DNA from: Aulosira sp. ZfuVER01
GTDB taxonomy: Bacteria; Cyanobacteriota; Cyanobacteriia; Cyanobacteriales; Nostocaceae
Length of the DNA: 64,000 nt
Direction of reading: 5' to 3'
Assembly (NCBI GenBank): GCA_034530615.2
Contig: JAVRCV020000007.1
Span: 64,001-128,000, forward strand
The position numbers and the translations under genes are program-made. Below are positions 46,838-60,147 of this stretch, in pieces; within the stretch, counting starts at the first letter, position 1; every line of letters begins with the position of its first letter. The notes under the pieces were generated by a model, which saw only the letters and a program-made list of their open reading frames with translations, had not been told where the DNA came from and did not search any database.

Positions 46838-47149
46838 ATGGCAGCTGTATCTTTAAGCGTTTCTACAGTTAAACCTTTAGGCGATCGCGTTTTCGTGAAA
46901 GTGAGCGCCTCTGAGGAAAAGACCGCAGGTGGTCTGTATTTACCCGACACCGCCAAGGAAAAGCCCCAGGTTGGGGAAGTGGTCGCTCTAGGCCCTGGTA
47001 AGCGGAATGATGACGGTTCTCGTCAAGATCCCGAAATCAAAATCGGAGACAAAGTACTGTACTCCAAGTATGCTGGCACCGATATCAAGCTCGGCACCGA
47101 AGAGTACGTCCTGCTTTCTGAAAAAGATATTTTAGCAATTGTGGCGTAA
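46838..47149 (+). CDS. groES: Co-chaperonin GroES
   Basis: [24 protein letters not shown] and SKYAGT. Confidence 0.98.
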
Positions 47150-47242
47150 TGGGTCTTGGTGATTGTGGCATAGTGATGCCCAATACGAGAGCGATCTATT
47201 ACCAAAATTTAAAGACAAACTTGACTTAACTCCCTCAATTAG

Positions 47243-48886
<1,644 letters not shown>

Positions 48887-48910
48887 TACTTTATAGCCCC
48901 CTATTTGTCA

Positions 48911-48947
48911 AAACAGCTGCTTCCCTTGTGGAGGCGGCTGTTTTTTT
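48911..48947 (+). terminator. groESL terminator
   Basis: AAACAGCTGCTTCC-CTTGT-GGAGGCGGCTG followed by TTTTTTT. Confidence 0.85.
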
Positions 48948-49008
48948 GTCTTATTAAATCGCAGAATTATAGTAATAAATTAATATCGCATAAAAATCTG
49001 AAAATCAC

Positions 49009-49815
49009 TTGAGTTACGACAACGCTTGTAAATATTTAGCTGAACAGTACCCAGCAGATTTTGTGCGCTGGTTACTAGGAGTAGACGCGCCACAAATTGA
49101 AATCTTAAAAACTGAACTGACACTAGAACAAATTCGTGCAGATTCTGTGACATTTCTGCAAGCAGCTAACAAAATTTTACATATCGAATTTCAAACATTA
49201 ACGATATCCGATCCGCCACTTAACTTCCGAATGCTCGATTATTCGGTGAGGTTAAAGCGTCAATATCGATGTCCTGTAACCCAAGTAATCATCTTTTTAC
49301 AGGAAACTACTAACGAAATGGCTTTTGCTGAAGAATATCGAGACGACACAACAATTCATCAATATCGGGTAGTTAGATTATGGGAGCAAGATTCAGCAGC
49401 GTTTTTGGCAAATCCTGCACTGTTACCTCTAGCAACATTAACCAGAACTGAATCACCTCAAGGACTGCTTGCACAAGTTGCCGAACGAGTCGCTACAATT
49501 CCAAATAGAGAGCAGCGACAAAATATAGCTGGTTGTATAGAGATTTTGGCTGGATTGCGGTTTGAGAAGGATTTAGTTCAGCAATTTTTACGGGAGGATA
49601 TTATGAAAGAATCTGTAATTTATCAAGATATCGTTCAAAAAGAAGCATTGAAATTGATTAGCCGTATGCTTAAACGGCGTTTTGGCGATATTGATGCATC
49701 ATTATTTGAACAAGTTCGGAATTTATCTGCTGAACATTTAGAAGATTTAGGAGAAGCGTTGTTTGATTTCTCTGAATTTGCTGATTTGGTAGCTTGGTTA
49801 GAAGAGCATAATTAA
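49009..49815 (+). CDS. Rpn-like PD-(D/E)XK protein with C-terminal DUF4351
   Basis: YDNACKYLAE, IRADSV, ILHIEFQT and RMLDY; C-terminal LKRRFG...LEDLGEALFDF...LVAWL; TTG start. Confidence 0.85.
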   Translation: MSYDNACKYLAEQYPADFVRWLLGVDAPQIEILKTELTLEQIRADSVTFLQAANKILHIEFQTLTISDPPLNFRMLDYSVRLKRQYRCPVTQVIIFLQETTNEMAFAEEYRDDTTIHQYRVVRLWEQDSAAFLANPALLPLATLTRTESPQGLLAQVAERVATIPNREQRQNIAGCIEILAGLRFEKDLVQQFLREDIMKESVIYQDIVQKEALKLISRMLKRRFGDIDASLFEQVRNLSAEHLEDLGEALFDFSEFADLVAWLEEHN

Positions 49816-49847
49816 AATGCTCATTTAAATACAAGTATTTGCGTATT

Positions 49848-50513
49848 ATGTCAAAGTTAACAGAAACTTTAGATAAAATTCTGAATTGGTTAGAAGAACA
49901 TGAAGATTTAGACTTTGCTCGGTTTGAATCATTACAACCTGGACTTACATATAAAGAAATTGAACAAAAATTAACTGATTTATTACCTTTGCGGTTACCC
50001 AAAGAAGTTTATGAACTTTATCAATGGGGTAATGGTGCTTGGTACGACGAGGAAGATTGGGCACGATTTTTTGATAATCGGACTTTTCTTTCTTTAGAAT
50101 CTGCGCTGGATATGTATTTTGGTTTAACAAAATTAGATAAAGAAGCAGATAAATTGGAATTTCCATCTATGTGGAGTGATACTTGGAATACTCGATGGTT
50201 TCCGATTTTCCAAGAACAATATAATACAGGTTTTTATGCAGTTGTTCTTGATGAAGCACAAAAAGAAACAACGCCAGTATTAGATATATTTTTGGAAGAT
50301 TGTGATGATGAGCCTTTTATCATCTATCCAAGCATAACTAAAATGATACTTGCAGAAGCAGAGCTTTATGAATCCGGTTATTACTTGCAGAAAGCTGAAC
50401 TCAAACAGTTAAGCTATGACTTGCAATCAAGATATAGATCAGCTTTAGATGAAGAGGCAAAATATATTCGCCAAAAATATCAAGATATGCACATCAAGGT
50501 TTGGCGACAATAA
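49848..50513 (+). CDS. SMI1/KNR4 (SUKH) family protein
   Basis: LTETLDKILNWL...LQPGLTYKEIE...LPKEVYELYQWGNG...FLSLE...WFPIF. Confidence 0.75.
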   Translation: MSKLTETLDKILNWLEEHEDLDFARFESLQPGLTYKEIEQKLTDLLPLRLPKEVYELYQWGNGAWYDEEDWARFFDNRTFLSLESALDMYFGLTKLDKEADKLEFPSMWSDTWNTRWFPIFQEQYNTGFYAVVLDEAQKETTPVLDIFLEDCDDEPFIIYPSITKMILAEAELYESGYYLQKAELKQLSYDLQSRYRSALDEEAKYIRQKYQDMHIKVWRQ

Positions 50514-50602
50514 AAACTAACAAGCACAGTATTTTTACAAAAAAATCAATAGCTGGTTAACATACTTAATCTTTCACTTCGTGCAAAAACACTCAGAAAA
50601 AA

Positions 50603-50626
50603 CTTTGCGCCTCTGCGCCTTTGCGT
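50603..50626. repeat. Solo (CT[TC]TGCG[CT])x3 array, same unit as the GxxExxY flanking repeats
   Basis: CTTTGCGC CTCTGCGC CTTTGCGT. Confidence 0.75.
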
Positions 50627-50657
50627 GAGATTATTATCCCTGCTGCTACACAAGATA

Positions 50658-51503
50658 ATGAGTGAAATTCTAGAAAAAGAAGTTTCTAATACTTGGCATG
50701 GCAAACTTAATTTAGTCTACGCCGATCGCCTAAATACCACCCAGCTAATTTACAATCACCAGCAAGCACCGCTAAAGGTACAGCGTCCGTTTTATCCCGA
50801 AGGCGAAAAAGTCTGTCACAGCGTCATTTTACATACGGCTGGGGGAGTCGTGGGAGGCGATCGCCTTTCTCTCAATTTCCACCTCCAACCCCACGCACAA
50901 GCATTAATCACTACAGCTGCCGCTAGTAAGATATACCGCAGCAATGGACTGCAAGCGAGACAAACCATTGAGATTCAAGTTGATGCTGGCGCTTGTTTGG
51001 AATGGCTACCCCAAGAAACAATTTTGTTTAACAGTGCGATTTATCGGCAAGATTTACGGGTAGAATTAGCAACCGGAGCTAGTTGGTTAGGCTGGGAAAT
51101 TACGCGATTAGGGCGCAGTGCGAGAGGAGAAAAGTTTTTGCAAGGAGAATGGCGATCGCATACCGAAATTTGGCAGCAAGGTGTTCCCTTGTGGATCGAT
51201 CGGCAATATTTACCGGGTAGTGAAGAAGTTTTCCACAGTCCTCACGGCTTGGCTGGACAACCAATAGTAGGTAGTCTGGTTTGGGTTGGTAATCCAGTTG
51301 AATCGGAAATAGTGAAAAAAGCACGCAGTTTATGGCATGGTGCAGGAGAGGTGGGAGTGTCGCGACTACAACATGGACTTTTATGTAGATATCGCGGTGC
51401 TTCCACATCTGAGGTGAGAAACTGGTTTACGGCTGTTTGGCAAATGCTACGAGTTGAGTTTTTGAGTCGTGGTAGCTGTATACCAAGAGTTTGGCAGGTT
51501 TGA
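50658..51503 (+). CDS. ureD: Urease accessory protein UreD
   Basis: [42 protein letters not shown] and PRVWQ. Confidence 0.93.
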
Positions 51504-51525
51504 ACGAACCGCAGAGGAGGACGAA

Positions 51526-51828
51526 ATGCAACTTACGCCGCAGGAAAAAGATAAGTTGTTAATTTTTACTGCTGCTTTATTGGCAGAAAGACGTAAGGAA
51601 AGAGGTTTGAAGTTAAATTATCCTGAAGCAGTTGCTTATATTTCTGCTGCGATTTTAGAAGGTGCGAGAGATGGGCAAACTGTTGCAGAATTGATGAGTT
51701 ATGGCACAACTTTGTTAACGCGAGATGATGTCATGGAAGGTGTGCCGGAAATGGTGCATGAAGTGCAGGTGGAAGCAACTTTTCCTGATGGCACAAAGTT
51801 GGTAACTGTACATAATCCGATTCGTTAA
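51526..51828 (+). CDS. ureA: Urease gamma subunit
   Basis: [11 protein letters not shown]...LNYPEA...[26 protein letters not shown] upstream. Confidence 0.97.
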
Positions 51829-51846
51829 TATGCAAAGGAGTAAAAT

Positions 51847-52152
51847 ATGATTCCAGGGGAAATTATTACGCAAGATGGAGAAATTGAATTAAATGCTGGT
51901 CGTGAAACTATTAAACTACTAGTAGCAAATACAGGCGATCGCCCAATTCAAGTCGGTTCGCATTTTCACTTTTTTGAAGTTAACTCCGCCTTAAACTTTG
52001 AGCGAGAACAAGCGCGAGGAATGCGCCTCGATATTCCCGCCGGGACAGCTGTCCGTTTTGAACCAGGCGATGAAAAGGAAATTAATCTCGTCCCGCTTGT
52101 TGGGAGTCGTCAGGTTTATGGGTTTAATGGCAGAGTTAATGGAGGACTGTAA
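51847..52152 (+). CDS. ureB: Urease beta subunit
   Basis: [22 protein letters not shown] and GTAVRFEPG. Confidence 0.97.
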
Positions 52153-52161
52153 GGAAGAGAT

Positions 52162-52630
52162 TTTTAACGCAGAGGGGCGCAAAGGGAAACGCAAAGGTAC
52201 GCGGAGTTAGAGTTTGTTTGCTACACGCTTGATGCCTTGTTTGAGGTGGAGAACGTTAAAGTTGAGAATCAGACCGAGTTTACAATTTGTGAGTTTCAGA
52301 TAAGTTAAAAGTTGTACGGAGTGAATTGGGTGAATAGATTCTACAGATTTAACTTCAATAATTACTTTATTTTCTACTATTAAATCTAATCGATATACAC
52401 AATCTAATTCAACTTTTTCATACACAAGCGGTATTGGAACTTGTTTACTAACATGAAATCCCCTCTTCTTCAATTCGTAATACAAACACTCCTCATAAGC
52501 TGACTCCAACAACCCTGGCCCCAACGCCGTATGCACTCTCATCCCACAACCAATTATCGCCCCACTTAAATCATTCTCATCCATCCTCCGCGAACCTTTG
52601 CGCCTACCTTCGCGCTCCTTTGCGTTTAAA
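52162..52630. mobile_element. Candidate small mobile cassette: GxxExxY gene bounded by 45-bp imperfect inverted repeats
   Basis: Left arm 52162-52206 vs the reverse complement of right arm 52586-52630: 37/45 identical, ungapped, by manual alignment. The arms abut the stop codon and lie 1 bp from the start codon. Confidence 0.6.
52207..52584 (-). CDS. GxxExxY protein (PD-(D/E)XK nuclease-like family)
   Basis: [36 protein letters not shown] and QLLTYLKL...GLILNF; start MDEND at 52584. Confidence 0.92.
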
Positions 52631-52663
52631 CTCGATTCTAACCTCACTTACAAGGAATGTAAT

Positions 52664-54379
52664 ATGCCTTACAAAATGTCTCGCCGTGCCTACGCAGAAA
52701 CTTATGGGCCAACAGTAGGCGATCGCGTCCGGCTTGCTGATACAGAATTATTTATCGAAGTAGAACAAGATTTCACCACCTACGGCGATGAGGTGAAATT
52801 TGGTGGCGGTAAAGTAATCCGTGATGGGATGGGACAATCCCCGATTTCTAACGCTGATGGTGCTGTAGATTTAGTAATTACAAATGCTTTAATTCTTGAT
52901 TGGTGGGGTGTAGTTAAAGCCGATATTGGTATTAAAGACGGCAAGATTTTTAAAATTGGTAAAGCGGGAAATCCTTATATTCAAAATAATGTAGATATTA
53001 TTATTGGCCCGGGAACCGAAGCCTTAGCAGGGGAAGGTATGATTCTCACGGCTGGCGGAATTGATAGCCATATTCATTTTATTTGTCCGCAGCAGATAGA
53101 AGTTGCGATCGCCTCCGGTATTACGACGATGATTGGCGGTGGTACTGGCCCAGCTACAGGTACGAACGCCACTACCTGCACCCCCGGCCCTTGGAATATG
53201 TACCGGATGTTGCAAGCTGCTGATGCTTTTCCTGTGAACTTGGGATTTTTAGGTAAAGGTAACGCCAGCCAACCCCAAGGACTTATTGAACAAGTAGCGG
53301 CTGGTGCAATCGGGTTAAAGCTGCATGAAGACTGGGGAACTACACCCGCAACCATTGACACTTGTCTCAGCATAGCTGATGAATATGATGTCCAGGTGGC
53401 AATTCACACCGACACCCTCAACGAAGCCGGATTTGTCGAAGATACGATCGCAGCTTTTAAAAATCGTGCCATCCACACCTACCATACTGAAGGTGCAGGC
53501 GGTGGACACGCGCCAGATATTATCAAAGTTTGTGGCGAGGCGAATGTTCTCCCATCTTCCACCAACCCCACACGCCCTTACACCCTCAACACTTTAGACG
53601 AACACCTGGATATGTTGATGGTATGCCATCACCTCGATCCAGCGATCGCGGAAGATGTGGCCTTTGCCGAATCCCGTATCCGTAGAGAAACAATCGCCGC
53701 CGAAGATATTTTGCACGACTTAGGTGCATTTAGCATGATTTCTTCTGATTCTCAAGCGATGGGAAGAGTAGGGGAAGTAATAATTCGCACCTGGCAGACA
53801 TCTCATAAAATGAAGGTGCAACGGGGAATCCTTAACCCACAAACAGAAGAACAAAGGGCTGATAATTTTCGAGCAAAAAGGTATGTTGCTAAGTACACCA
53901 TAAACCCAGCCATTACCCACGGAATTGCTCAGTATGTGGGGTCAGTAGAAGAAGGGAAACTTGCAGATTTATGTTTATGGCAACCAGCGTTTTTTGGCGT
54001 GAAGCCAGAGATAGTTATTAAAGGTGGAATGATTGCATGGTCGCAAATGGGCGACGCTAACGCCAGCATTCCCACACCGCAACCAGTACACATGCGACCG
54101 ATGTTTGGTAGCTTTGCTGGAGCGCGTCATGCTACATCATTAACTTTTGTTTCTCAAGCGGCGTTAGAAAAGGATATTCCCAGTCAGTTAGGTTTGCAAA
54201 AATCGGCCGTTGCAGTTTCCGGGACACGCCAATTAAGTAAACGGGATTTAAAGCTGAATGATGCGCTACCTCAGATTGAAGTAGATCCAGAAACCTATGA
54301 AGTCAGGGCCGATGGCGAATTGTTGATTTGTGAACCTGCGACAGTTTTACCAATGGCCCAAAGATACTTTTTGTTCTAG
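52664..54379 (+). CDS. ureC: Urease alpha subunit
   Basis: [45 protein letters not shown] and [10 protein letters not shown]. Confidence 0.98.
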
Positions 54380-54421
54380 TTCATGACCAAATAATAACTA
54401 ATTCGGAATTTTGAATTGGTG

Positions 54422-55474
54422 TTACTCGTTGCTTAAAGCTTCACTCAACAAATCACGATGCATTAAGGCTCGATCCACTAAAGATTGAATTTGCTTCGGC
54501 GACAGGGGATCGCCATTAGCATAATGCTCCATCCAAGTTGTACTAATTAAATTGGCGTCCTCTGGTATATCCGCCAAATCCCACCCAGGCATAGATAAGT
54601 CTTCCATGAGACGATTTACCTTGGGATCGTAACTGAGAGCAAAACAGCGACATCCTTCAGCTGCTGCCATAATCAAGCTGTGTAGGCGCATACCAATGAC
54701 CATTTCCACACCGCGATACACACCTTTTAAAAGTTGTGGATCTTCCAGACACATAATCTGGCTCACATCTTTGAGTTGAGGTTGAATTTCCTCAGCAATT
54801 TCTAAATCTTCACTTTTTTGAAATGGCAATAGTAGAATAAACGTTTGCGTGGCTTTTTGAAAATCAGCCAAAGCACGAGTTAAATTTGCCAAGCGCGTTT
54901 CTGTAAGTTGGGGATGCGATCGCAAAGTCACCGCAACTCTGGGCGCAGGTAAATCCCAAAGTCCGGGTACTGGCTTAGATTCCAAAGCCCAAACTGGGTC
55001 AGGTGCAAGGATACAAGGAATTTGCCAATCAGCTAATAAATTCGCACTAGCGCGATCGCGTACACTGACCTTGGTACAACCAGCAAAAGTCTGTCTTGCT
55101 AACCAACGAGTTTGCGGACGCTTCAAGGGGCCAATTCCCTGGGCCCAAGCAACGGTTTTTAAACCCATTTTCTGTGCCAAAGTCATCAATCCCCCATAAT
55201 AAAATGGGTTGATGGCACTAGTAACATCTTGGATTAAACTACCACCGCCCCATATAAAAGCATCACAAGAGCGCAAAGCTTGCAGTACAGATGAAACAGC
55301 CATGCGATTGTGAGATTCCACACCATAGCGATCGCGGGTTTCCTCAGGATTACCAGAAAGCACCACAGGTGTGACATGAGGTGGTAGCATTTGCAAAAGC
55401 GTTGCCAATAGAGCTTCGTCACCACCATTACCTTTTCCGTAATACCCAGATAATAACGCCCGCATCGGTTTCAT
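54422..55474 (-). CDS. csaB: Polysaccharide pyruvyl transferase CsaB
   Basis: SGYYGKGNGGDEA, GGGSLIQDVTS, AQGIGPL, GMRLHSLI and SYDPKV. Confidence 0.9.
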   Translation of the reverse strand: MKPMRALLSGYYGKGNGGDEALLATLLQMLPPHVTPVVLSGNPEETRDRYGVESHNRMAVSSVLQALRSCDAFIWGGGSLIQDVTSAINPFYYGGLMTLAQKMGLKTVAWAQGIGPLKRPQTRWLARQTFAGCTKVSVRDRASANLLADWQIPCILAPDPVWALESKPVPGLWDLPAPRVAVTLRSHPQLTETRLANLTRALADFQKATQTFILLLPFQKSEDLEIAEEIQPQLKDVSQIMCLEDPQLLKGVYRGVEMVIGMRLHSLIMAAAEGCRCFALSYDPKVNRLMEDLSMPGWDLADIPEDANLISTTWMEHYANGDPLSPKQIQSLVDRALMHRDLLSEALSNE

Positions 55475-55599
55475 TTTTAATTTTGGATTTTAGCTAATAG
55501 AGTTTGTTTGCACCTGATTATCTATCACTTATACAGATGTTAGGTGCGATGGCTGGCATACTTTCCAAAAAATCGGATTTTTCTTGTGGGAAGATGGGG

Positions 55600-55700
55600 A
55601 GAGGAGAAGCAGGGGAGCAGGGAGCAAGGGGAGAAATGAAAAATGTCCTTGACTCTTGCCTATTGACCCTTGACTTTTGACTTTTGACTTTTGACTTTTA
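55600..55700. repeat. STRR cluster (GGGAGCA, (CTTTTGA)n)
   Basis: Tandem heptamers in the divergent csaB / DUF2499 region. Confidence 0.75.
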
Positions 55701-55708
55701 ACTTACTT

Positions 55709-56056
55709 ATGCACGCCCTTTCGATTCCCACCTGGATTATTCACGTTTCTAGCGTCATTGAGTGGATTGCCGCTATATGGTTAATCTGGACTTACGGCGA
55801 ACTTACTGGTAATCGGACTTGGTGGGGATTATCCTTCGCCATGTTACCGGCTTTGGTCAGCGCTATGTGTGCTTGCACCTGGCACTATTTTGACAATCCA
55901 GAATCTTTAGAATGGCTGGTAACACTTCAAGCTACCATGACCTTAGTTGGTAATTTTACTCTTTGGGCAGCGGCGGTGTGGATTTGGCGTTCCAGCAAAT
56001 CTGCCCAGAAGGGAATTAATTCTGTTGCAGCCCAACCTATCAAATCAGAGCGATGA
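55709..56056 (+). CDS. DUF2499 (Ycf49-like) membrane protein
   Basis: MHALSIPTWIIHVSSVIEW and AMCACTWHYFDN. Confidence 0.85.
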   Translation: MHALSIPTWIIHVSSVIEWIAAIWLIWTYGELTGNRTWWGLSFAMLPALVSAMCACTWHYFDNPESLEWLVTLQATMTLVGNFTLWAAAVWIWRSSKSAQKGINSVAAQPIKSER

Positions 56057-58040: not shown

Positions 58041-59120
58041 TTATTTATTCTTCACCTGACTCTTCGCCTGCTCTAATGCTATTTCTTTGATTGCTTGGTA
58101 CGAATTCACATTAGCAGTACCTTCAATTGCTTTTACTGCTAAATCCTGAACTTGTTTGAGAGCAGATTCAAGTTGCTTAGAAAGGTTTTGAATGCGAGTA
58201 TCTTGATTAGTAATTGTCTGTTCTAGAGATTGCAATCTCTGTTCATAAAAACGCTTCTGTCCTTCTACTTCTTTGCTATATAAATCTGATTTAATTTTAG
58301 CTTGATAGTAGGCAATACCTTTACCTTCTTCTGTTGCTTTTTTGAGAGCAGCTTCTTTCTCTTTAGGAAATGCTTCTACCTTAGCTTTATATTCTTCAAA
58401 TTGTTTTTCTCGTTCAGCAATTGCTTTCTCTCGTTCAGTCCACTCTTTCTCCGTTTCTTGTTGAAATTCTTCTAACTGCTTATTTAATTCTTTTTGCTGC
58501 TGTTCGTATTCATCTTTTGCTAATTTACGTTGCAGTTCCAAATTATACTTATACTCAGCCTCATCTCTTTGCCGAGTTCTTTTAAGATTTTCATCTCGTT
58601 CTTTAATTAATCTGTTATTTTCTTCTTGTTCTTTTATCCAAGTTTTTCTTTGCTCATCTATTTCTTGTAATAATAGTTCCTTTTGCTCGCTAAACTCTTC
58701 TTGATAGTTTTTAGAATTCTCTTCATAGTTGGCAATTAGAGTATCTAAAATATCTTCAGATATTTCTAAATTATGTAGTTGCTTTAGCTGTTGGACTTCT
58801 TGCCCTACATTTTCTCCAATTTCTGCTAATTTAGAGGCTTGCGTAGTTAGCTGTTCTGATAATTCATTTGCCGCGCTACCAAAGCCTAACTGAATTTTAG
58901 CCAAGCTTTCAATTGTATAATTCATCTTTTGCTGAACAGTAGATTGCGGATTCATAGTAGTTTTTGGCTCTAGTTTGGGTTTTTCTTTCGCGACAGATTG
59001 GTTTTCTTTTAGTGCTTGATTCAGTTGTGTTTTAACGGCTGCTGTCTCTTTGGCTAACTCTTCATAAGCTTGAAGTATTTCAGCTTTAGTACTCTTATCA
59101 GTTGGTTTTTTAACTACCAC
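58041..59120 (-). CDS. Coiled-coil-rich protein, probable ZacK/LfiB (Alr4505) orthologue
   Basis: E/K/Q-rich heptads; paralogous to the upstream gene (QVQDLAVKA vs QAQDLAMRA); position beside sphR matches the Anabaena PCC 7120 arrangement as I recall it. Confidence 0.7.
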   Translation of the reverse strand: MVVKKPTDKSTKAEILQAYEELAKETAAVKTQLNQALKENQSVAKEKPKLEPKTTMNPQSTVQQKMNYTIESLAKIQLGFGSAANELSEQLTTQASKLAEIGENVGQEVQQLKQLHNLEISEDILDTLIANYEENSKNYQEEFSEQKELLLQEIDEQRKTWIKEQEENNRLIKERDENLKRTRQRDEAEYKYNLELQRKLAKDEYEQQQKELNKQLEEFQQETEKEWTEREKAIAEREKQFEEYKAKVEAFPKEKEAALKKATEEGKGIAYYQAKIKSDLYSKEVEGQKRFYEQRLQSLEQTITNQDTRIQNLSKQLESALKQVQDLAVKAIEGTANVNSYQAIKEIALEQAKSQVKNK

Positions 59121-59169
59121 AATTAACCTCTATAATTTCAAAAAAACTTGCTAAAACGATTAAGATAGC

Positions 59170-60147
59170 CTATTTAGAACTATCAAAAGCTCTCATTGCT
59201 AAGTCTTGTGCCTGTTTCAATGCAGTTTGTAGTTGAGCAGAAATTCCTTCAATTTGCTCTGTTTGTTTGTTAATAGTTTCTTCTAAAGACTGAATTTTTA
59301 ATTCGTAACTCTGTTTGCTAGATTCCCACTCTTTTTCAAATAAATCAGCTTCGACTTTGGCCTTTTGGCTTGTTTCTTTAATTGCTTCTTCTCTAGCCTT
59401 TTTAACTGCTTCTTCCAATTCAGTAGGAAATGCTGCTATTTTTTGCTGATATTCTGTAAACAGAGGTTTATTTTGAGTGAGAATTTTTTCACGTTCTGCC
59501 CAGTTTTTCTGTTTTTCTTGGGTACTTTCTTGTATTTCCCTTTCTAAATTGCGTTTCCGTGCTTCATAAGCATCTGTAGTTAATTTTCGTGTAGTTTCTA
59601 ACTTATATTGATATTCTTCTGCTTCAGAAGAGCGTTGTTTAACTAATACATCGTTGTAAGCTTGTAGCGCTTCTTCGTATTCTGCTTGCTCTTTCTGCCA
59701 CTCTTTACGCCTAGTTGTAATTTCTTTTTCCAGAGCTTCTCGCTTACTATAAATTTCTTGTTCTAGAGTTTTTAATTTTTCTTGATGTTCTTGATTTAAA
59801 ATGTCTAAAGCATCTGCTACAATTCTGATTTGTTGAAGCTCTTGTAACTGCTGAGTTTCAATTTCTATAGCCCGATTTAATTCATCTAATTTGGAGTTTT
59901 CTTTAGCTAATTTTTCTGATAGGGAATTGACAATACTACCAAATTCCAATTGTAAATCAGCTAAACCTTTAACAATACTATCAACAGTATATGTAGAAGC
60001 AGCTACCAAAATCTCTTGGCTTTTTGCCTTTTCTGCTTCCTCTTGTTTAGTAGCTATTTTTGAGTCTAATTTTTTTCTTTCTGCAAGAATTTGTTGAAAT
60101 GCTTGTACTATTTGTTGTTTGCTGTCTTTGATTGCAATTGTCGTCAT
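59170..60147 (-). CDS. Coiled-coil-rich protein, probable ZicK/LfiA (Alr4504) orthologue
   Basis: SD AAGGAG upstream; continuous coiled coil; divergent from sphR. Confidence 0.7.
   Translation of the reverse strand: MTTIAIKDSKQQIVQAFQQILAERKKLDSKIATKQEEAEKAKSQEILVAASTYTVDSIVKGLADLQLEFGSIVNSLSEKLAKENSKLDELNRAIEIETQQLQELQQIRIVADALDILNQEHQEKLKTLEQEIYSKREALEKEITTRRKEWQKEQAEYEEALQAYNDVLVKQRSSEAEEYQYKLETTRKLTTDAYEARKRNLEREIQESTQEKQKNWAEREKILTQNKPLFTEYQQKIAAFPTELEEAVKKAREEAIKETSQKAKVEADLFEKEWESSKQSYELKIQSLEETINKQTEQIEGISAQLQTALKQAQDLAMRAFDSSK

Follow-up and report, generated by a model that had tools for sequence, protein, structure and literature searches.

A GxxExxY gene framed by inverted copies of a dispersed repeat in the urease operon of a nostocacean cyanobacterium

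The cassette between ureB and ureC and its protein

The window, i.e., the whole stretch of 64,000 nucleotides that was analysed, belongs to an 8.0-Mb genome whose closest named relatives are Nostocales, and carries a small gene of the GxxExxY family, framed by inverted arms, between the urease genes ureB and ureC. The junction comprises the following features:

51847..52152, plus strand: ureB, the left-hand host gene
52162..52206, plus strand: left arm (3' arm of the GxxExxY gene), a T-run and four CRCNRAG units with 10-12-10 nt spacing; a type-A dispersed repeat
52207..52584, minus strand: GxxExxY gene, 125 aa, PF13366/TIGR04256, predicted PD-(D/E)XK nuclease with residues E27, D67, E77, K79, Q91 and Y95
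52586..52630, minus strand: right arm (5' arm of the GxxExxY gene), an inverted type-A copy that ends 1 bp from the ATG
52635..52663, minus strand: likely promoter of the GxxExxY gene, outside the arm (ATTACA, 17 nt, TAGAAT); a putative assignment from the consensus match
52664..54379, plus strand: ureC, the right-hand host gene

The GxxExxY gene runs antisense to both neighbours, its stop codon abuts the left arm, and gene plus arms make up 469 bp. The arms are identical at 37 of 45 positions in an ungapped alignment, which extends to 53 nt at 79%, and form the longest inverted repeat of window positions 50000-56000. This anatomy had been set out in a preliminary description made from the letters alone, and on recheck it proved exact: the arm sequences, coordinates and 37/45 match, the one arm at the stop codon and the other 1 bp off the ATG, the 469-bp unit and the four units per arm, whose spacing, given there as 10-12 nt, is 10-12-10. 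The antisense 125-aa gene between ureB and ureC was likewise confirmed as GxxExxY by its PF13366 and TIGR04256 profile matches.

Outside the right arm lies the sigma-70-like site, from which an antisense transcript would be predicted to start near 52628, and a TAnnAT hexamer, whose middle letters vary among the rows of this gene lineage, stands 2-16 nt before the arm in all 30 rows examined, two of which are duplicates, and 7 nt before it in 20. Together, the site and the conserved hexamer argue that the arm-to-arm unit likely lacks a promoter of its own. At the Flavobacterium-like loci L131, L132, L133, L146 and L151, a TAnnTTTG motif, presumably the Bacteroidota promoter consensus, is found just outside the 5' arm, in parallel to the cyanobacterial TAnnAT.

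Upstream of the urease genes, window positions 46838-50513 hold what we take from the translation to be groES-groEL, then a DUF4351 gene and an SMI1/KNR4 gene, and then ureD; the DUF4351 and SMI1/KNR4 genes resemble additional cargo, lodged where the junction is conserved. On the other side of the cassette, two adjoining charged, coiled-coil-like ORFs of 359 and 325 aa (58041-60147, minus strand) have no Pfam match.

The encoded protein is a full member of the GxxExxY/PDDEXK_3 family by both curated cut-offs: it matches TIGR04256 with E 1e-44 (151 bits vs a cut-off of 35) and PF13366 with E 8e-44 (149 bits vs 22), and PF13366 is the only match of the protein in a Pfam search. A single-sequence fold (pLDDT 39.8) was replaced by an alignment-based model from 74 sequences, with pLDDT 94.8. 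Structure searches with modest scores return Cas4 proteins as the best Foldseek rows (E 0.003) and, in a wide search, a restriction-endonuclease-like protein (Z 8.1, rmsd 3.3 A over 99 residues). The modelled fold is PD-(D/E)XK, Cas4/RecB-like, and the protein is a predicted nuclease; the preliminary description had named this fold, and both the model and the invariance of E27, D67, E77 and K79 bear it out. Residues E27, D67, E77, K79, Q91 and Y95, which we take to be a RecB/Cas4-type E...D...ExK...QxxxY site, are invariant in 74/74 aligned sequences and kept in 142-150 of 150 library representatives. A sequence search of solved structures gave no match up to E 10.

The gene is under purifying selection (dN/dS 0.06-0.16 in 28 comparisons) and belongs to a very large family, with 7,478 clusters at 50% identity among matches with E up to 1e-10. 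Eleven of the 12 best family rows (P0001-P0009, P0011 and P0012) are proteins of 268-295 aa with two GxxExxY domains in tandem; such relatives hint that the 125-aa protein may act as a dimer. In the accessible parts of two reports, the function of PF13366 is listed as 'Unknown' with multiple transfers (PMC3424549), a GxxExxY gene is labelled cas4 by another tool (10.1101/2021.01.26.428298), and neither gives a flanking repeat or a repeat-linked role for GxxExxY/PF13366. The literature searched, which took in a minority of subscription papers, yielded no paper that links GxxExxY/PF13366 to repeats.

Arm types and the genes they follow

Inverted arms accompany GxxExxY genes well beyond this junction. 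When 100 nt on either side of a gene were scored and a score of at least 14 was taken as inverted arms, such arms were found at 93 of 114 GxxExxY loci, a set that includes many orthologous cyanobacterial rows and a few duplicates, vs 7 of 600 control ORFs of this genome; the enrichment that the preliminary description had proposed to look for is thus present. In a phylum-wide GxxExxY sample the figure is 24/30 loci, and outside cyanobacteria it is 23/34. Within this genome there are four GxxExxY genes, the paralogues being 32-54% identical to the ureB-ureC copy: three have clear arms, each of another type, whereas at the fourth CACGGAT-like repeats narrowly miss the cut-off.

The design of the arms maps onto the phylogeny of the protein. 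In a tree of 80 GxxExxY proteins, kept after 34 near-redundant rows were dropped, arm spacing class follows the protein clades. A (starred) clade of 51 rows, with members in cyanobacteria, Bacteroidota, Calditrichia and Melioribacter, is characterized by the four-unit design and occupies sites as unrelated as ureC, a GH15 gene, flavodiiron genes, a HemN-like gene and atpD-atpC; the 8-8, 8-9 and AT-ending designs mark other clades. At an FrhB-like/methionine gamma-lyase-like junction, a clade-B cassette is found in both orientations, and its arm variants differ between the two (L055, L058, L061 and L226 vs L056, L059 and L060).

The arms are at the same time members of a repeat family dispersed through the genome, which holds 72 arrays of at least three CGC/CAC-purine-purine-AG units vs 0 in an 8-Mb order-3 Markov simulation; the arrays are therefore not due to chance. 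Type A, with four units at 10-12-10 spacing, is present in 27 copies, the cassette arms included, and type B, with three units of the 8-8 design, in 19; CRC and AG are fixed and the spacers are free to vary. The two arms of the cassette are alike at 34 of 41 positions vs a mean of 31.3 for type-A pairs, and 19% of all pairs score as high: these arms are ordinary members of the dispersed family, not specially alike. Most arms are singlets, with an inverted partner within 150 nt at 9/27 type-A arms (downstream; 1 upstream) and at 3/19 type-B arms. By crude ORF calls, 14/27 type-A and 9/19 type-B arms lie at most 30 nt after a stop codon vs about 12-13% of random intergenic spots. In the urease operon itself, arm-family sequence is found at three junctions: in addition to the cassette, there is a solo type-B arm directly before ureD (window 50603-50628, minus strand) and one AACGAACCGCAGAG unit between ureD and ureA (51503-51516, plus strand).

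Other repeats share this space. In one genus, many identical type-A arms are carried by an unrelated MITE, about 100 bp long and flanked by TA, which has separate terminal inverted repeats and is present at many sites (L254-L266; G247, G214 and G272), so some arm counts are inflated by another mover. An apparent recent burst of identical arm copies in genera g130 and g108 was discarded because the copies lie within larger repeats. A comparison of four solo-arm sites in five congeners gave no fresh filled/empty pair: one site was without a match, and the three that aligned had a retained repeat, a different repeat or a different neighbour in the congeners. Other palindromic elements are inserted within arms at ten loci (L077, L098, L102, L103, L115, L197, L200, L202, L245 and L246), at L245 in both arms of one cassette. 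Heptamer tandem runs hold post-stop positions that are occupied by arms elsewhere (L221 vs L242/L243; L247), and one such run is present in the window at 55647-55702.

Linked arms would be co-inherited with their gene in any case and prove little, so unlinked arms were counted genome-wide. Exact type-A and type-B patterns were counted in 131 genomes of the family, and the same genomes were searched for genes of clade A, to which the ureB-ureC copy belongs, and of a sister clade, B, which includes the C80 paralogue; reversed-pattern controls gave 0 in every genome. At least five type-A arms are present in 33/33 genomes with a clade-A gene (median 27) vs 23/98 without one (median 0), and at least five type-B arms in 37/37 genomes with a clade-B gene (median 45) vs 32/94 without (median 1); where clade B occurs by itself, the median number of type-A arms is 0. 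With kinship controlled to genus level and the cassette's own two arms removed beforehand, more arms accompany the matching gene in 15/17 within-genus contrasts for type A (p 0.002) and 15/16 for type B (p 0.0005), whereas cross pairings, i.e., the gene of one clade with the arms of the other, split 7:7 and 6:7. When each genus is represented by a single genome (65 in all), the matched tests give p 9e-10 and 3e-7 and the crossed ones 0.10 and 0.58; in a regression over all 131 genomes the matched terms are 2.3-2.4, and clade A has a small crossed term for type-B arms (0.59 +/- 0.24). Ten arm-rich genomes that had been scored as lacking clade A were searched again: five have no clade-A trace, and five hold remnants or copies, in which the gene is split between contigs, is complete but had escaped the protein search, or survives as a fragment; one of these five traces is weak.

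Each arm type, then, follows the gene of its own clade, a double dissociation, and this co-occurrence fits a gene that spreads its arms or arms that keep their gene. The preliminary description had likened protein and arms to RAYT/REP pairs. The specific link between gene and arms holds, by enrichment, clade concordance and double dissociation; the further notion of an autonomous 469-bp mobile element fares poorly, as detailed below.

History of the junction and proposed mode of action

Within the genus, the cassette stands before ureC in 5 of 15 genomes, and the other ten have 730-1910 nt of unrelated genes at this position. Of about 118 genomes that have ureB, sixty ureB-ureC junctions were selected according to the size of the gap. 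The gene is present at 15 of them, once inverted (G192) and once broken (G180); at four others (G219, G220, G253 and G237) a deletion has left one or both arms and, mostly, the ends of the gene, and in G220 and G253 the deleted remnant at ureC coexists with an intact gene copy elsewhere. Among the 28 junctions shorter than 250 nt, 15 have a solo arm, reversed in every case and belonging to one of several types, and 8 are without any unit. The ureB-ureC junction is a cargo-swap site.

Unrelated membrane proteins, small gene pairs and genes of 180-309 aa replace each other between ureB and ureC (L031-L044, L156-L215). A duplicated ureC 5' stub is retained in G005, G006 and G013, at 9/60 junctions (L156-L169, L182) it is the outer TTAA end of an arm that provides the stop codon of ureB, and ureB dS within the genus (0.44-0.93) exceeds that of ureD/ureA (0.16-0.37).

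The reading that we favour, at a probability of roughly 0.55, is that the protein binds DNA at the spaced heptamers of its own arms, with a nick close to the AT-rich outer end, and that repair spreads or renews the arms. A predicted Cas4/RecB-type nuclease, probably a dimer or oligomer, would read spaced CRCNRAG units on DNA and would introduce a nick near the AT-rich outer end of the arm; host repair would then copy arms into intergenic sites just past stop codons and shuffle units between arms. One gene copy would serve all arms in trans and would itself move rarely, and spare gene copies would decay.

Alternatively, the protein could be a domesticated arm reader with a host job, e.g., at transcript ends or in recombination and cargo exchange at gene junctions, with arms that multiply via host recombination or other elements and are kept for the protein's use. 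The same double dissociation would be expected, and the housekeeping-like inheritance of the gene, its purifying selection and the clustering of arms after stop codons all agree with such a role, as does the cargo-swap site between ureB and ureC with its solo arms in a single orientation. A gene with a host job should not, however, be lost as often as this one, which is kept here in 5/15 congeners and whose clade is present in 33/131 family genomes; arms after stops have no clear strand bias genome-wide (25 forward, 18 reverse), and a host job leaves unexplained why arms frame nearly every copy of the gene. We regard this alternative as unlikely.

Considerably less probable is an action at the RNA level, in which pairing of the arms within the ureBC mRNA, or within the transcript of the gene itself, would loop the insert out or lead to its excision. 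In 23S rRNA intervening sequences, an ORF can lie in the loop between complementary flanks in just this manner, and the preliminary description had suggested that the arms loop the insert out of the ureBC mRNA. The plus-strand RNA of 52140-52680 does fold such that the arms pair (z = -3.04), which is to be expected of any inverted repeat, and in other phyla the cassette sits within operons such as atpD-atpC. Yet the suggestion finds no sign of selection for pairing. The two cassette arms resemble each other no better than arbitrary members of the family do; over 33 cassettes, the agreement between cognate arms (35.1 of 41) is only slightly above that between non-cognate arms (33.4), and the arm differences comprise 80 true mismatches, with 64 and 50 G-U-compatible differences on the two strands and no strand preference. 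Most arms have no partner, and Rfam gives one chance-level match and no fitting family. The urease operon, moreover, tolerates large foreign inserts, as the 730-1910 nt of unrelated genes in 10/15 congeners attest. In one RNA run (word share 0.05; contigs only, from mixed related strains), one contig spans the ureB end, the insert and the ureC start; the run bears on neither transcription nor processing. A 'skips 378' RNA joint that had been a candidate for insert excision was rejected: its contig has other flanks and represents a gene-less arm pair elsewhere.

An autonomous minimal transposon of 469 bp that has the arms as its terminal inverted repeats and inserted here recently, a stronger form of the preliminary description's candidate minimal mobile element, is hardly tenable. 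The preliminary description had proposed to search for empty sites and for breakpoints at the arm ends, and both exist: apart from the arm-retaining deletions in G219, G220, G253 and G237, the filled, inverted G192 and the near-clean empty G235, which are congeners, differ in the unit from arm to arm, at a TTTAA end that lacks one base of an exact repeat. A second site is empty in G004 and G014, the site of the second paralogue (C80) is filled in three and gene-less in three of the six congeners compared, and the clade occupies many unrelated sites across phyla. However, the gene in G192 nests inside the starred ureC-site clade, so that G192 has been inverted in place, and G235 is most simply explained by loss of the unit at its arm ends; host recombination could produce either.

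Copy number, inheritance and distribution point the same way. The clade-A gene is present in one copy per genome in 33/33, 19 of these copies adjoining ureC and 14 lying elsewhere, and the Nostocales loci that were retrieved have only two main sites. At four-fold sites, the gene has diverged within the genus (0.26-0.31) to the same extent as its flank ureC (0.28-0.34), and the gene tree mostly follows the ureC tree, recovering its Rivularia and Nodularia/Anabaena groups; the copy between ureB and ureC is thus an old resident, mostly vertically inherited. In the one conflict between the trees, three Nostoc rows join Tolypothrix/Scytonema (AU p 0.034, in a test devised after both trees had been seen), which suggests an allele replacement in place and counts in favour of a transposon. 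An apparent excess of cross-genus transfer on codon dS shrank on four-fold sites, where 1/20 comparisons had p<0.05, uncorrected. The likely promoter lies outside the unit. The family is near absent from plasmids (8/72,556, mostly large and all non-mobilizable) and phages (0/50,697), and IMG/VR has one weak GxxExxY locus.

Least credible is the lack of any functional link, with the arms as host repeats that gather at AT-rich gene ends and the gene as passive, co-inherited cargo: heptamer runs, palindromes and MITEs do share post-stop positions or nest in arms, and a linked cis sequence is co-inherited without any recognition, but unlinked solo arms follow the matching clade only, just 7/600 other ORFs have arms, and the four-unit design is kept at unrelated sites from cyanobacteria to Bacteroidota, Calditrichia and Melioribacter.

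Relation to known systems

Under the favoured reading, in which the protein nicks its own arms and repair spreads them, the closest parallel is with RAYT/REP systems, described in the accessible parts of PMC3116915 and PMC5581495 as single-copy, vertically inherited enzyme genes with their own dispersed repeats. Like RAYT (TnpA-REP) with its REPs and REPINs, the GxxExxY gene encodes an enzyme in single copy, and the repeats at its flanks recur in scattered intergenic positions; a genome may hold several distinct enzyme-repeat pairs, in which the flanking repeats are abundant, extragenic and enzyme-specific, and inheritance is mostly vertical, with rare occurrence on plasmids. By contrast, the GxxExxY enzyme has a PD-(D/E)XK fold and RAYT is an HUH/Y1 tyrosine transposase, the GxxExxY arm is a direct array of spaced 7-mers and REP is a palindrome, and GxxExxY arms are mostly singlets whereas REPs are mostly inverted doublets. 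The comparison supports the interpretation that the GxxExxY gene and its arms would work like RAYT/REP but are not a member of that class.

Other systems share single features with the cassette. Cas4/RecB-type nucleases have the same fold and E...D...ExK...QxxxY arrangement, and weak Cas4 profile matches are obtained (E 6e-4), but the GxxExxY protein is only 125 aa long and is without an invariant Cys or a four-cysteine Fe-S cluster, and its gene adjoins ure genes instead of cas genes. Insertion sequences and MITEs likewise place a gene between inverted ends, and the arm-retaining internal deletion in G220 resembles a MITE derivative; unlike insertion sequences, the cassette has no transposase of a known class, its gene is not multi-copy, near-identical young copies are absent and its sites are old and fixed. 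The 23S rRNA intervening sequences with an ORF differ in that the cassette is not in rRNA and has no sign of selection for arm pairing.

The type-specific tie to dispersed repeats gives a very large, function-unassigned family a defined candidate substrate, and clade A vs type-B arms make a built-in specificity control; together, these render GxxExxY function directly testable. If the favoured reading is true, the origin of abundant intergenic repeats in Nostocales would be explained, the RAYT/REP arrangement would have arisen twice, with unrelated enzymes, and a family of 125-aa sequence-specific nucleases would, given the natural diversity of its targets, be useful in practice. A bolder generalization, which we put forward tentatively and hold to be more doubtful than probable, is that prokaryotic GxxExxY genes and their arms form a second, independently evolved class of enzyme-plus-repeat replicators, with thousands of clusters that each read their own unit and spacing code; a Cas4-like nuclease of 125 aa would cut and propagate the arms by a chemistry unlike that of known transposases and would seed recombination sites at gene junctions.

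The small dispersed repeats (SDR) of Nostocaceae, reportedly treated by Elhai and colleagues in 2008 in a study cited in PMC5861425, are said to be short, intergenic and nested in each other, and we know of no protein partner for them. The GxxExxY arms may be catalogued already among those SDR families.
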